Below are positions 45,716 to 48,005 of a DNA stretch of 64,000 nucleotides, piece after piece. This DNA comes from an uncultured Clostridia bacterium (lineage in GTDB: Bacteria > Bacillota > Clostridia > TANB77 > CAG-465). The notes beneath the pieces are model-generated. The model was not told the origin of the DNA. It did not search any database and saw only the letters and a program-made list of their open reading frames with translations. Within the stretch, counting starts at the first letter, position 1; the number at the start of each line of letters is the position of its first letter. The position numbers and the translations under genes are program-made. The stretch spans positions 56 through 64,055 of the forward strand of contig CAKOYA010000005.1 in NCBI GenBank assembly GCA_934130325.1. The letters run 5' to 3'.

Positions 45716-46591
45716 TTAACTAGCAAAAGCACTATTAATAATATTAGAAATATATGTTAATAAACCTACTGCACAAAATGCCATTACAATTCCAATTAAA
45801 AAATTAGTAGACTTTAGCTTTAACTCTGATTTTCCTTTGGCACCTGAAAGAACGTACTTAACTCCAATAAATATTACCCCACCTATTGCTAAAACATTTG
45901 CTATCTTTGTTAGAGTATTAAATATTTGAGCTATTGTTGAATTTAAATTATCCTTTACAAAAATTAATGAATTTCTAGCAAATAATAATGTCCATATTGA
46001 ATTCCAACCAAAGAAAAATACACAAGCAATCAACAAATTAAATAATCCCTCTTTTACATCTGCTTTTGCCTCAACTGATCCATATATATATTTGACGCCT
46101 AAAAATATAGTAGCTAGAACAATAACAGTTGTCCCTATCAAATTTACCATATTAGAAAATTCAGTAATAACCTTGCCTGCTGGGCCATTTCTTACACTAT
46201 CTATTGAACTCCCTAAATCGCCACCATTATACCAATTTTGTGCTTGTTCCCAAAAATCTCCTGTTTCGTTAAGAGCGCTATTATATTGATTAGATGCATC
46301 ATTAGATACAGAATAATTGCTATAATTATCTTTCAATATTTTTATATCTTCATCAAATTTCTTTAATTCCTTTTGTTTATCTTCTTGACTCATACTGGAA
46401 TCATTCTTTATTCTACTAATTTCATCTTTTAATGCTTGTACTTGGGAATTATAATAATCCAAGTCGTTTTGATCATTTAAATTCCATCCTTCATATATAT
46501 ATCGTGCATATAAACTAGAATATGAACAAACATAAAAAATGCTTAATAATATTACTATAAAAATCTTAAATTTTGTAGTATTTCTTTTCAA
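45716..46591 (-). CDS. Secreted protein with a coiled-coil N-domain and two tandem VirB2/TrbC-like helical-hairpin modules
   Basis: Signal peptide (...SSLYA|RY). Coiled-coil QVQALKDEISRIKND...KELKKFDEDIKILKD. Module 1 is VIVLATIFLGVKYIYGSVEAKADVKEGLFNLLIACVFFFG. Module 2 is LAIGGVIFIGVKYVLSGAKGKSELKLKSTNFLIGIVMAFC. Confidence 0.55.
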   Translation of the reverse strand: MKRNTTKFKIFIVILLSIFYVCSYSSLYARYIYEGWNLNDQNDLDYYNSQVQALKDEISRIKNDSSMSQEDKQKELKKFDEDIKILKDNYSNYSVSNDASNQYNSALNETGDFWEQAQNWYNGGDLGSSIDSVRNGPAGKVITEFSNMVNLIGTTVIVLATIFLGVKYIYGSVEAKADVKEGLFNLLIACVFFFGWNSIWTLLFARNSLIFVKDNLNSTIAQIFNTLTKIANVLAIGGVIFIGVKYVLSGAKGKSELKLKSTNFLIGIVMAFCAVGLLTYISNIINSAFAS

Positions 46592-46631
46592 ATTTCACAC
46601 CTCACATTATTTATATAATTATATCAATAAA

Positions 46632-46669
46632 CAAAAAAAAACTCAATGTTTTTTTAAAAAAACATTGAA
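46632..46669 (-). terminator. Intrinsic terminator/attenuator after the third short pilin-like gene
   Basis: tcaatgttttttt (46643-46655) pairs with aaaaaaacattga (46656-46668). It is followed on the minus strand by about 9 T (plus-strand A-run at 46632-46641). Confidence 0.7.
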
Positions 46670-46728
46670 TTTTAACAAAAGTTATAATTTATTTTTAATA
46701 AACTAAAATGTAATAATAAAAATTAATT

Positions 46729-47145
46729 CTATTTTGTAACATTTGTAACATCAGTAAATATGTTTATAATAATATCAATCACAAGTGAAGAGGAAAAAAC
46801 AAGAACTATTCCAACTACTATTTTTATTAATCCCTGTTTAATCTCACTTTTAGCATCTATTCCAGCAAAGATATACTTAACGCCTGCAAATAATATACCA
46901 GCAACACAAAGAACCCAAATAATAACTTTAACTGTATTCCAAACTCTATAAACTTGTCTCTTAAATACCATATCACTGTTACTATTAGTTAATCCACTAA
47001 TTATACTAGGATTAAATCCATCTCCTAAATCTCCAGCTGCTGTTGTATCTTCAACCGTTTCTTCTGCATAAACTAACTGCATTGAAAAAATAGAAAAACA
47101 CGTAAAAATAACTAGTATCAATGCATATATTTTTTTATTTCTCAT
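46729..47145 (-). CDS. VirB2/TrbC-like pilin candidate 3
   Basis: The preferred start is ATG 47145 (aggagag 9 nt upstream). Signal peptide (...QLVYA|EE). Hairpin VWNTVKVIIWVLCVAGILFAGVKYIFAGIDAKSEIKQGLIKIVVGIVLVFS. Confidence 0.55.
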   Translation of the reverse strand: MRNKKIYALILVIFTCFSIFSMQLVYAEETVEDTTAAGDLGDGFNPSIISGLTNSNSDMVFKRQVYRVWNTVKVIIWVLCVAGILFAGVKYIFAGIDAKSEIKQGLIKIVVGIVLVFSSSLVIDIIINIFTDVTNVTK

Positions 47146-47176
47146 ACCAATAATCTCTCCTACCATAATCACTACT

Positions 47177-47539
47177 TTAAAGAGTTTCAGAAACTATCCC
47201 GCCTATAATAGAAATAACAGTTCCAGCACCAAATACTAAAACACACCCTATTATAATATAAATCATACTCTTCTTAATTTCTGATTTTTGATCAGATCCA
47301 GAATACATATACTTTAACCCTACAATTATTATCCCAATTACTGCAGCTACTTGTACTACACTTGCTATAGACCTATATATTCTACCAGCAGATTTTGTAA
47401 CAGCTTCAATTTTTTCGTTGCCTGTTCCATCAATACTTGAATGGAGTGGTTCGTCAACTGCATAAACACTACCTACTACATTAAAACATACTATACTTAA
47501 AAGTATTATAGCAATAATATACATTAATTTATTTTTCAT
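47177..47539 (-). CDS. VirB2/TrbC-like pilin candidate 2
   Basis: The preferred start is ATG 47539 (ggagg 5 nt upstream); the ORF-track start at 47551 is TTG. Signal peptide (...GSVYA|VD). Hairpin IASVVQVAAVIGIIIVGLKYMYSGSDQKSEIKKSMIYIIIGCVLVFG. Confidence 0.55.
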   Translation of the reverse strand: MKNKLMYIIAIILLSIVCFNVVGSVYAVDEPLHSSIDGTGNEKIEAVTKSAGRIYRSIASVVQVAAVIGIIIVGLKYMYSGSDQKSEIKKSMIYIIIGCVLVFGAGTVISIIGGIVSETL

Positions 47540-47560
47540 ATAAGCCTCCAATTATATAAG

Positions 47561-47587
47561 AAAAAGCATACTAAACGTATGCTTTTT
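47561..47587 (-). terminator. Hairpin directly after the first pilin-like gene (candidate attenuator)
   Basis: aaaaagcatac (47561-47571) pairs with gtatgcttttt (47577-47587). On the minus strand the trailing sequence is TCTTATATAAT after the U-containing stem end. Confidence 0.45.
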
Positions 47588-47594
47588 TATTTTT

Positions 47595-48005
47595 TTAGCA
47601 TTTTTCAACAATAACAGTATCAGAATTTAAATATGTACTACCATTATCAAAGTCTTTAACAACACCAGTTATTAAATTAATTACTAAACCAGCACCAAAC
47701 ACTAAAACAGCACCTATAATTAAAGTTACAGTTTGTTTCTTTATATCAGCCTTTGAATCCGCACCTGCAAACATATATCTAACACCTGCAAAAATTATAG
47801 CTATAACCGCCAAAATCTGTGCCACAAGTGAAATAGTTCCCCATATTGAGCCAGCTAAATTCGACACAGTAGGAGAGGCATCTTCCCCAGTAACTTCATC
47901 AATGTTAAATTCTAAATTTGCAGCAAACACACCACTTGTAACCATTAAACATCCTACTACTAATAAAGGTAGTATCCATAACATTATTTTTTTTGTCTTT
48001 TTCAT
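47595..48005 (-). CDS. VirB2/TrbC-like pilin candidate 1 (likely the major subunit: strongest promoter and RBS)
   Basis: RBS aaggagga. Signal peptide (...SGVFA|AN). Hairpin IWGTISLVAQILAVIAIIFAGVRYMFAGADSKADIKKQTVTLIIGAVLVFGAGLVINLI. Confidence 0.55.
   Translation of the reverse strand: MKKTKKIMLWILPLLVVGCLMVTSGVFAANLEFNIDEVTGEDASPTVSNLAGSIWGTISLVAQILAVIAIIFAGVRYMFAGADSKADIKKQTVTLIIGAVLVFGAGLVINLITGVVKDFDNGSTYLNSDTVIVEKC

Follow-up and report, generated by a model that had tools for sequence, protein, structure and literature searches.

Why would a bacterium bounded by a single membrane keep four genes for small secreted two-helix proteins side by side, and why should one of them carry the two-helix unit twice? 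The question is raised by contig CAKOYA010000005.1 of an uncultured Clostridia bacterium, of which a stretch of 64,000 nucleotides (hereafter the window) was analysed. Positions 45716-48005 of its minus strand hold four adjoining genes with exactly five copies of a module consisting of a hydrophobic helix, a short K/R-rich loop and a second hydrophobic helix. An earlier note on this DNA had proposed that these are VirB2/TrbC-like pilin modules. The four open reading frames (ORFs) that it described were all found on the minus strand, the five motif strings that it quoted are present verbatim in the proteins, and independent gene calls in other assemblies give 136, 120, 138 and 291 amino acids for the four products. 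We conclude that the four genes, here named pilin 1, pilin 2, pilin 3 and the double pilin (Table 1), code for pilins of the VirB2/TrbC family that belong to a type IV secretion system (T4SS) for a single-membrane envelope, and we hold the VirB2-family identity with high confidence.

The reading of the modules as VirB2/TrbC-type is borne out by PF04956 for genes 1, 2 and 4, by hhalign for gene 3 and by the T4SS gene context. PF04956 (TrbC/VirB2) scored 38.6 bits with pilin 1, 37.2 with pilin 2 and 33.2 with the double pilin (gathering cut-off 27.9), and PF18895 (T4SS_pilin) scored 28.3 bits with pilin 2 and 34.5 with the double pilin (cut-off 26.6); each of the two families matched two stretches of the double pilin. 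Pilin 3 stayed under both cut-offs (21.9 bits with PF04956, 22.3 with PF18895) and was joined to the family of pilin 1 by hhalign (probability 99.4%, E = 2e-21), as was module B of the double pilin (probability 98.9%, E = 1.7e-17). Pilin 1 has more than 500 homologous clusters at 90% identity, some of which NCBI names ‘TrbC/VirB2 family protein’, and some single-pilin homologues in related metagenome-assembled genomes (MAGs) already carry this name from automatic annotation.

A hidden Markov model (HMM) made from the five 72-amino-acid modules was searched against the 443 six-frame ORFs of at least 40 amino acids in the window. It recovered just the five modules, with domain E values from 3e-31 to 4e-33 (3.6e-33 for pilin 3) and a runner-up at E = 0.07; no sixth module was found by this strict search of the 443 ORFs, which left only weak hairpins in the VirB6-like proteins. 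Pairwise identity among the five modules is 21-49%; it is 21% between modules A and B of the double pilin and 49% between pilins 1 and 2. All four proteins begin with a basic n-region and a hydrophobic h-region, as judged from sequence and hydropathy, and the leader site x-[FY]-A is kept in the family alignments of pilin 1 and of the double pilin. The loops between the hydrophobic segments are rich in K and R, and pilin 1 has an acidic N-terminal segment. The loop of pilin 1 is nearly invariant in its family alignment; its variable parts are the N-terminal segment and the C-terminal tail, both of which are predicted to be exposed. In full, the pilin 2 ORF spans 47177-47551 (124 amino acids with a TTG start) and that of pilin 3 spans 46729-47172 (147 amino acids with a GTG start); the shorter forms are used in Table 1.

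Hydropathy and AlphaFold2 agree in giving one helix-loop-helix unit to each single pilin and two to the double pilin. Pilin 1 was modelled as a helical hairpin with a predicted local distance difference test (pLDDT) score of 71.7, and the double pilin has helices at residues 137-170, 173-203, 216-248 and 250-289. The coiled-coil domain that had been proposed in the 291-amino-acid protein was recovered as helices at residues 41-121 with a pLDDT of about 90. By the positive-inside rule, the topology of the pilins is predicted to be that of VirB2, with a cytoplasmic loop and both ends outside.

When one genome per species was scanned, with the window proteins compared by BLASTP, the block was found at 53 loci in species-level genomes. 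All 53 lie in MAGs titled uncultured Clostridia, Clostridium sp. CAG:465, CAG:921, CAG:1219 or Bacillota, and the MAG names point to rabbit (‘Lapin’), sheep, chicken and Hadza (human) samples. Genomes of the CAG:465 type probably fall in the GTDB order TANB77. The taxonomy of the hosts was taken from record titles and sporulation genes: the titles place the clade in Clostridia, not Patescibacteria, and the flanks of related loci include SpoVAD, SpoIIP, SpoIIE and spore photoproduct lyase, so that the hosts are spore-forming Firmicutes. The common gene order is SHMT, PGI, TraX (in some loci), SSB, M23 on the opposite strand, one to four single pilins, the double pilin and the machinery, the last consisting of VirB3-like, TrsD-like and VirB4 genes, one to four VirB6-like genes, genes for proteins of no known family and the hydrolase. 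The double-pilin family comprises 46 clusters in a 90%-identity collection, with both modules and the motifs ACVFFFGW (invariant) and DFWxxAxxW, and at E <= 1e-10 its profile matched 438 representative proteins of a library of 1.84 billion proteins.

The array itself has a usual order of conserved pilin, fast-evolving pilin or pilins, and fused double pilin. Two singles followed by a double is the layout of 33 of 58 loci; three singles and a double, as in the window, is that of nine. Between species the number of single pilins ranges from one to four. Nearly every locus has just one double pilin; a second copy is present in 3 of about 54. First pilins fall into one coherent orthogroup in 42 of 42 loci and, at a mean pairwise identity of 59%, make up the best-conserved class of module. 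For the later single pilins such a grouping holds in just 6 of 42 loci, and they are on average 51% identical to the first pilin of their own genome; they look like repeated or fast-diverging copies of it. A strong hairpin with a T run is present 3' of the first pilin in 23 of 42 loci (55%), as against 36% for the last single pilin, 10% for the double pilin and 3% for random windows. In view of this conservation, and of the terminator-like hairpin that often trails the first pilin, pilin 1 is probably the major subunit, and the earlier proposal to this effect gains support from the orthogroup, the module conservation and the hairpin frequency alike.

In the double pilin of the window, module A is on average 56% identical to its orthologue group and module B 44%. 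Each half is orthologous across species, so the fusion appears to be ancient and the halves specialised. Among 188 family members, 7 have one module, 168 have two, 10 have three, two have four and one has five. The five-module protein, P0209 (locus L063, 801-2153), has 450 amino acids and was found on six contigs, and thus is not an assembly artefact; its locus reads pilin, five-module protein, small ORF, pilin, VirB3-like, TraC-like, VirB4, VirB6. Known five-fold conjugative pili have five subunits per layer. Other multi-module relatives (P0273, at L065 3859-4947, P0265 and the ten three-module proteins) come from a similar type of T4SS locus. The stretch before module A has a median of 73 and a maximum of 480 amino acids and exceeds 150 amino acids in 44 of 181 proteins; no Pfam domain was found in the long N-terminal extensions of ten double pilins. 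P0295 instead has a C-terminal extension of 560 amino acids in the same PGI-linked context. That this extension might be a VirB6 fusion was considered and rejected, as BLASTP against the VirB6-like protein of the window was not significant. As both ends of a VirB2-type hairpin lie outside, those of the double pilin are predicted to be extracellular too, and the double pilins look like conserved membrane or filament anchors that display variable exposed domains.

Is this a mobile conjugation system? SHMT and PGI are the usual neighbours wherever the upstream flank is covered, at a double-pilin identity of only 23-57%, and this shared site across divergent species indicates that the block is inherited vertically and is not mobile. 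The Pfam scan of the window covered 50 ORFs, namely all those of at least 200 amino acids and every non-overlapping one of at least 100 amino acids in the 29.5-54.8 kb block; none of them matched a relaxase, coupling-protein or integrase family. No coupling-protein-like candidate was found in the flanks (about 10 kb) of the related loci; a Walker A motif is present in 7 of 56 representative unassigned ORFs there, which are unlike a coupling protein in size and layout, and in the Pfam screen of these flanks 38 weaker families fell outside the displayed results. A tblastn search of PLSDB (72,556 plasmids) with pilin 1 and the double pilin gave no match. A plasmid origin of the pilins was rejected, given this absence of a pilin match in PLSDB, where VirB4 alone has plasmid relatives. 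We regard the system as chromosomal, relaxase-less and vertically inherited, and are fairly sure of it.

Spacing and hairpins suggest how the array may be transcribed. The spacers measure 55 nucleotides between pilins 1 and 2 (with a hairpin), 31 between pilins 2 and 3, 137 from pilin 3 to the double pilin (containing a hairpin as well as a promoter-like site) and 29 between the double pilin and the VirB3-like gene. The hairpin at 47560-47588 has a predicted energy of -12.6 kcal/mol (z = -2.5) and lies beside a T run. The ribosome-binding site of gene 1 is AAGGAGGA. In the promoter-like site upstream of this gene the -35 element TTGCAT is weak, with 3 of 6 consensus positions, and the site was read by eye and missed by a consensus promoter scan. 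This arrangement suggests three transcription units, consisting of pilin 1, of pilins 2 and 3, and of the double pilin together with the machinery genes, with which it appears to be co-transcribed.

The explanation that we favour, and consider rather likely, is an array of VirB2 pilins made up of a major subunit, accessory copies and a nucleating or capping double pilin. Sec would insert each precursor, and cleavage after x-[FY]-A would remove its leader, leaving in the membrane a mature two-helix hairpin with its ends outward and its K/R-rich loop in the cytoplasm. The VirB3-like, TrsD-like, VirB4 and VirB6-like machinery would extract the subunits and stack them on a VirB6-like platform into a tube whose lumen would be lined by the conserved basic loop, while the M23 peptidase and the 1083-amino-acid hydrolase would open the cell wall. 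Pilin 1, which has a promoter-like site and a ribosome-binding site of its own, would be the major subunit, and pilins 2 and 3 would be fast-evolving accessory or variant subunits derived as copies of pilin 1. The double pilin would nucleate or cap the filament and show a variable extracellular domain, comparable to VirB5 or to minor-pilin tip complexes; its role as nucleator, tip or display unit is a possibility that we put forward tentatively, and the heteropolymeric filament, tip or adaptor suggested in the earlier note is likewise a conjecture. The two VirB6-like proteins each contain a pilin-like hairpin, with the loop AIKL..S.A..KAKYKE, and when the pilin-module profile was aligned with the VirB6-like family by hhalign, the probability was 90% and E = 1.4e-6, a value to be read with the compositional bias of membrane helices in mind. 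VirB6 could thus template the filament with a built-in pilin-like unit. As for the substrate, the conserved SSB-like gene hints at single-stranded DNA, and the lack of a nearby relaxase or coupling protein may be a parallel to Ced-type DNA import and to the system of Patescibacteria.

Several points weigh against this explanation. Foldseek searches of the PDB with the models of pilin 1 and the double pilin returned generic helical bundles only (best E about 0.5-2), hairpins being poorly discriminated and the pLDDT being about 72; PDB sequence profiles likewise gave no significant match for either family, by methods that discriminate two-helix hairpins poorly. The best PDB profile match, to the Pf3 coat protein (E = 0.08), was judged a chance or compositional effect. 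Both the filament and the leader cleavage are predictions, and the clade appears to have no cultured member. The double pilin could equally be a membrane-resident platform subunit, its tip or nucleator role being one that we infer. Promoter-like sites are not enriched in this AT-rich region (20 found, 26 expected in shuffled sequence), and consequently the model of three transcription units draws on the hairpins and the spacing only. Lastly, the gene for a relaxase or coupling protein could lie in another part of the genome, which is the case for the coupling protein of Southlakia (PMC12102498). How far do these points favour another reading? Two-helix hairpins are structurally generic, and the absence of a pilin match by Foldseek and PDB profiles would suit holins, bacteriocin-immunity proteins or other unrelated small membrane proteins that resemble pilins in layout only. 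This we find scarcely credible, because the TrbC/VirB2 and T4SS_pilin matches exceed curated thresholds and the linkage to VirB3, VirB4 and VirB6 genes is invariable in more than 50 genomes. Membership in a holin or other small-membrane-protein family had been named in the earlier note as a finding that would refute the pilin reading; the sole Pfam holin match among the pilins was Phage_holin_5_2 at E = 0.91, and the surroundings hold no phage context. An ordinary conjugation module of an integrated mobile element, exporting DNA with a relaxase and a coupling protein encoded outside the window, would account for a VirB4 that is nearest to the CD1110-type and Mycoplasma integrative and conjugative element (ICE) models, that is 40% identical to a Clostridium plasmid VirB4 and that shares with it the order pilin, VirB3, TrsD-like, VirB4, VirB6, hydrolase, and also for the SSB-like gene kept at the block edge, a kind of gene frequent on conjugative elements. 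It is improbable in view of the SHMT and PGI neighbours, which are usually constant in dozens of species, of the failure to find an integrase, relaxase or coupling protein in the scanned window ORFs or in about 10 kb around the related loci, as far as testable, and of the plasmid search with the pilins.

Two further readings accept the pilin family and dispute its use. The hairpins may form no extended pilus at all and build a short membrane or wall conduit or parts of the VirB6 platform, with the double pilin as a platform or stator subunit. The homologous hairpin in the VirB6-like proteins means that the module serves in proteins that stay in the membrane as well, the double pilin contains four membrane helices and appears to be co-transcribed with the VirB3 and VirB4 genes, and a conjugative pilus has never been visualised on any Gram-positive cell (bioRxiv 10.64898/2025.12.18.695078). 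We nevertheless think this rather unlikely: the loop motif of the abundant single pilin recurs in all five modules, which suggests one shared assembly route, the large variable domains that the double pilin carries at its extracellular ends make more sense in an exposed component, and labelling data on PrgF back membrane extrusion in a related system (bioRxiv 10.64898/2025.12.18.695078). The paralogues may, on the other hand, be alternative pilins that do not co-assemble, each forming its own homopolymer, so that the array would serve surface variation (immune or phage evasion, or partner matching). The unstable orthogroup of the later singles and their likeness to the first pilin of their own genome fit repeated duplication with fast divergence, the copy number varies between species, the variable parts of the alignment are those predicted to be exposed, and the same role has been proposed for the VirB2 paralogue arrays of Bartonella, Anaplasma and Patescibacteria (PMC12102498). 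A strongly conserved first pilin with a nearly invariant loop would be unexpected for the main product of a variation locus, however, and the double pilin is ancient, nearly always single-copy and tied to the machinery genes; neither an invertible promoter nor a recombination cassette was noticed, although no search was aimed at either. On this evidence the homopolymer reading is unlikely, and the array of a major pilin, accessory copies and a nucleating or capping double pilin is the one that we retain. A bolder extension of it, which we regard as speculative and somewhat doubtful, is that concatenated VirB2 pilins may be an unrecognised class of T4SS component that assembles a pilus layer in advance, in whole or in part, to nucleate or cap a Gram-positive T4SS filament, and that shows a hypervariable extracellular domain; the apparatus would then be domesticated, relaxase-less, passed down vertically in a gut Clostridia clade and non-conjugative, serving DNA import or dependence on a partner cell, and would be the Firmicutes counterpart, possibly a relative of the source, of the Patescibacteria system.

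The four paralogous genes with a tandem-module pilin had been called unusual for any T4SS. The array is real, but its rarity was overstated: Patescibacteria have arrays of 2-11 VirB2 genes in 383 assemblies, with a mean identity of 25%, and Bartonella and Anaplasma are cited as further examples (PMC12102498). The relaxase-less T4SS of Southlakia needs its pilin array, which is essential (PMC10633639, PMC12102498), and for the Patescibacteria T4SS Wang et al. proposed protein export or another function. The systems described in Ca. Southlakia epibionticum (SEML1_0006-0019) and Ca. Nanosynbacter lyticus TM7x resemble the Clostridia locus in being monoderm and chromosomal and in having no relaxase near the cluster (PMC10633639, PMC12102498, PMC12857230). 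Both share VirB2-like, PrgI/VirB3, TrsD, VirB4 and VirB6 components, of MPF-FATA ancestry (PMC12102498), and both have tandem divergent pilins recognised by PF04956 and PF18895, the Clostridia array lying within 4 kb of virB4. Unlike Patescibacteria, the host of the Clostridia locus forms spores, and the locus has M23 and large VirB1-like hydrolases among its products. Its conserved pilin of two fused modules (three to five in relatives) likewise sets it apart from the published accounts of the Patescibacteria system (PMC10633639, PMC12102498, PMC12857230).

A preprint of December 2025 presents PrgF of pCF10 from Enterococcus faecalis as the first VirB2-like protein of a Gram-positive plasmid; it was modelled on a VirB6 pentamer and is essential for conjugation, and a VirB5 equivalent was not found in pCF10 by ter Beek et al. 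(bioRxiv 10.64898/2025.12.18.695078). PrgF and the Clostridia pilins are alike in their small size, two membrane helices, short charged loop, proximity to virB6 and virB4, and monoderm T4SS. For PrgF, stacking on the VirB6 pentamer as a conduit was proposed, to which the stacking considered here is a parallel proposal. PrgF-type systems differ in that they are plasmid-borne and have a relaxase and a coupling protein, and in that one pilus-modelling candidate per plasmid was found in the 16 plasmids inspected, as opposed to an array. According to their authors PrgF-type sequences have almost no VirB2 homology, whereas the Clostridia pilins exceed the Pfam VirB2 threshold; neither fused pilins nor a tip protein were reported for them (bioRxiv 10.64898/2025.12.18.695078). 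Nearer relatives of the machinery are found on large plasmids of C. botulinum and C. beijerinckii (NZ_KT897276.1, NZ_CP107023.1), which have the closest VirB4 in PLSDB, 40-41% identical. They share the order leader-bearing hairpin protein, VirB3-like, TrsD-like, VirB4, VirB6-like and C39-type hydrolase, and differ in their plasmid location, in having a single pilin-like gene with a weak match to the module profile (E = 0.007) and in lacking a double pilin. Gram-positive conjugative T4SSs of the MPF-FATA type in general have VirB4, VirB3-like and VirB6-like proteins and a VirB1-like hydrolase in common with the Clostridia block; unlike it, they have VirD4/TcpA and a relaxase with the cluster, and a mobile carrier.

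The Gram-negative pilins VirB2 (Ti), TrbC (RP4) and TraA (F), whose pilus tip is VirB5, resemble those of the Clostridia locus in their PF04956 domain, long leader, two helices, basic loop and adjacency to virB3 and virB4, and a gene of the TraX family, which is known from F, lies near the Clostridia array. Unlike the Gram-negative systems, the Clostridia locus has no VirB7, VirB9 or VirB10, no VirB5 homologue, and no cyclisation peptidase was seen in it; its array of several paralogues and a fused one, without a significant match to solved pilins, also separates it from the classical pilins. The archaeal Ced/Ted DNA import systems (CedA1 pilus, CedA, CedA2, CedB) are said to be a chromosomal derivative of conjugation that has neither relaxase nor coupling protein. 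They reportedly have, as does the Clostridia locus, a VirB2-like pilus, a VirB6-like protein, a VirB4-like ATPase and more than one small hairpin paralogue; they belong to an archaeal envelope, and homology is demonstrated only to the superfamily level. Weak matches were obtained to the Mycoplasma ICE families Mbov_0395 (‘Mbov_0395 family pilin-like conjugal transfer protein’, NF045849; E = 2e-5 for pilin 1 and 1.6e-6 for pilin 2) and Mbov_0396/MMCAP2_0566, with which a monoderm T4SS context is shared. The Clostridia proteins score far under the NCBIfam cut-offs and are not members of these families, and the Mycoplasma genes are on mobile ICEs.

According to a review of December 2025, VirB2 is absent from Gram-positive T4SSs except in Patescibacteria, which would be unique among monoderms in their potential for conjugative pili (PMC12857230). 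In the searchable literature we found no description of a Clostridia chromosomal system, of its fixed genomic site or of fused multi-module VirB2 proteins. The Clostridia setting and the fused multi-module pilins therefore appear to be new, while VirB2 arrays themselves are known from Patescibacteria, ultra-small cells that were until now the only monoderms reported to have such a relaxase-less layout. The locus brings canonical, Pfam-recognisable VirB2 pilins, in the form of an array, into true spore-forming Firmicutes, and as a chromosomally fixed system parallel to the essential Patescibacteria machine it bears on the origin of that machine and of its pilins. The fused pilins of two to five modules with variable exposed domains are a testable candidate for the missing filament tip or nucleator of monoderm T4SSs. 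Gut metagenomes of humans and animals commonly contain the clade, and what such a conserved contact apparatus does there is therefore of ecological interest too.

Table 1. Positions of the pilin genes, their modules, the T4SS-related genes and the candidate regulatory sites in the window.
Feature	Coordinates	Strand	Remarks
Pilin 1	47595..48005	-	136 aa; leader end VFA|A; helices ~43-79 and 85-120; loop AGVRYMFAGADSKADIKKQ
Pilin 2	47177..47539	-	120 aa; ATG at 47539 behind GGAGG; leader end VYA|V
Pilin 3	46729..47145	-	138 aa; ATG at 47145; leader end VYA|E
Double pilin	45716..46591	-	291 aa; leader (LYA|R), helical N-domain ~41-121, DFWxxAxxW, module A, module B
Module A of double pilin	45956..46171	-	residues 141-212; loop GVKYIYGSVEAKADVKEG; invariant ACVFFFGW
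Module B of double pilin	45722..45934	-	residues 220-290; loop GVKYVLSGAKGKSELKLKS
PrgI/VirB3-like small membrane protein	45336..45686	-	116 aa; PF12666 E = 3.6e-4, under cut-off; two hydrophobic segments
TrsD/TraC-like protein	43922..45334	-	470 aa; one N-terminal membrane helix; homologous to N-terminal part of VirB4
VirB4-family ATPase	41890..43899	-	669 aa; P-loop_TraG, AAA_10, DUF87
Two paralogous VirB6-like multi-pass membrane proteins	39001..41871	-	473 and 477 aa; pilin-like hairpin at ~120-200 in each
Multi-domain cell-wall hydrolase	30341..33592	-	1083 aa; NlpC/P60, glucosaminidase, C39-like; distal end of block
Secreted M23 peptidase	48181..48690	+	divergent from pilins; PF01551 E = 1.5e-24; candidate wall remodeller
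SSB-like and TraX-family proteins	53238..54791	-	proximal edge of block
Promoter-like site 5' of pilin 1	48037..48064	-	TTGCAT, 16-nt spacer, perfect TG-extended TATAAT (TGGTATAAT)
Hairpin between pilins 1 and 2	47560..47588	.	11-12 bp stem flanked by A run and T run; terminator or attenuator candidate
AT-rich hairpin and nine-T run in pilin 3/double pilin spacer	46633..46669	-	15-bp stem (minimum free energy and centroid structures)
Promoter-like site just 5' of double pilin	46618..46646	-	TTGAGT, 17 nt, TATAAT with TG; 10/12 consensus matches

The machinery genes follow the double pilin on the same strand. The position of the VirB3-like gene is kept in nearly all related loci. The TrsD-like protein aligns with positions 91-271 of the NCBIfam model VirB4_plasma, and its orthologue in locus L004 matches PF26593 (TraC-like); TrsD has been described as the most abundant T4SS component reported in Patescibacteria (PMC12102498). 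VirB4 scored 217 bits with the NCBIfam model conju_CD1110 and 190 bits with VirB4_plasma, both under the equivalog cut-offs. VirB4 is split, in 41890-45334, into a TrsD-like protein and a separate ATPase, and this division recurs in every related locus as well as on the C. botulinum plasmid. The VirB6-like proteins have weak matches to the NCBIfam family Mbov_0396/MMCAP2_0566 and to PF18895 (E = 0.004). They are followed at 33613-38985 (minus strand) by five conserved genes without a Pfam match, coding for 391, 207, 303, 380 and 493 amino acids, the order of which is kept in most loci. Each product is predicted to have one or two membrane helices, placed N-terminally or internally, and no other membrane segment, which leaves VirB8-like proteins or other parts of the channel as candidate identities. 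The 1083-amino-acid hydrolase, for which a VirB1-like role is proposed, has a homologue in many related loci.

On the other side of the array, the M23 gene has the same place and orientation in every related locus in which that flank is covered. It is adjoined in most loci by the SSB-like gene, which is duplicated in loci L022 and L050. The SSB-like protein of the window (53238-53873, minus strand) has 211 amino acids, with an OB/SSB domain only at residues 112-198 and without an acidic C-terminal tail, and may be a T4SS-associated binder of single-stranded DNA, not a replicative SSB. The TraX-family gene (54060-54791, minus strand) lies between PGI and the SSB-like gene; it is present in about half of the related loci and missing in the others. 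TraX of the F plasmid acetylates the pilin N-terminus. Between the SSB-like and M23 genes of the window, the stretch 48760-52955 (minus strand) codes for a secreted protein of 1038 amino acids with four Big_2 repeats, an S/N-rich linker and an SH3 domain, and for two small single-pass proteins of 167 and 186 amino acids. Homologues lie near the array in a few loci only (L007, L010, L011), and the Big_2/SH3 protein could be an adhesin accessory to the system.

Beyond the proximal end of the block the window continues with the housekeeping genes for PGI, SHMT, OGG and IleRS, and beyond the distal end with those for an S1-domain protein, a glycosyltransferase, ComEC, a ClpB/ClpC-type AAA+ ATPase, CysRS, IF2, NusA and TruB. 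The ComEC gene (25949-28213, minus strand; competence channel and metallo-beta-lactamase domain) is about 2 kb from the T4SS block, past its distal end. Genes for a type II/IV secretion ATPase (PF00437, T2SSE) flank two related loci, in one case at L029 50-2813, and at least some members of the clade are therefore predicted to encode also the ATPase of a type IV pilus or competence pilus. At 11825-12859 (plus strand) the window codes for a protein of 344 amino acids with collagen triple-helix repeats, similar to exosporium BclA, which fits a spore-forming host.

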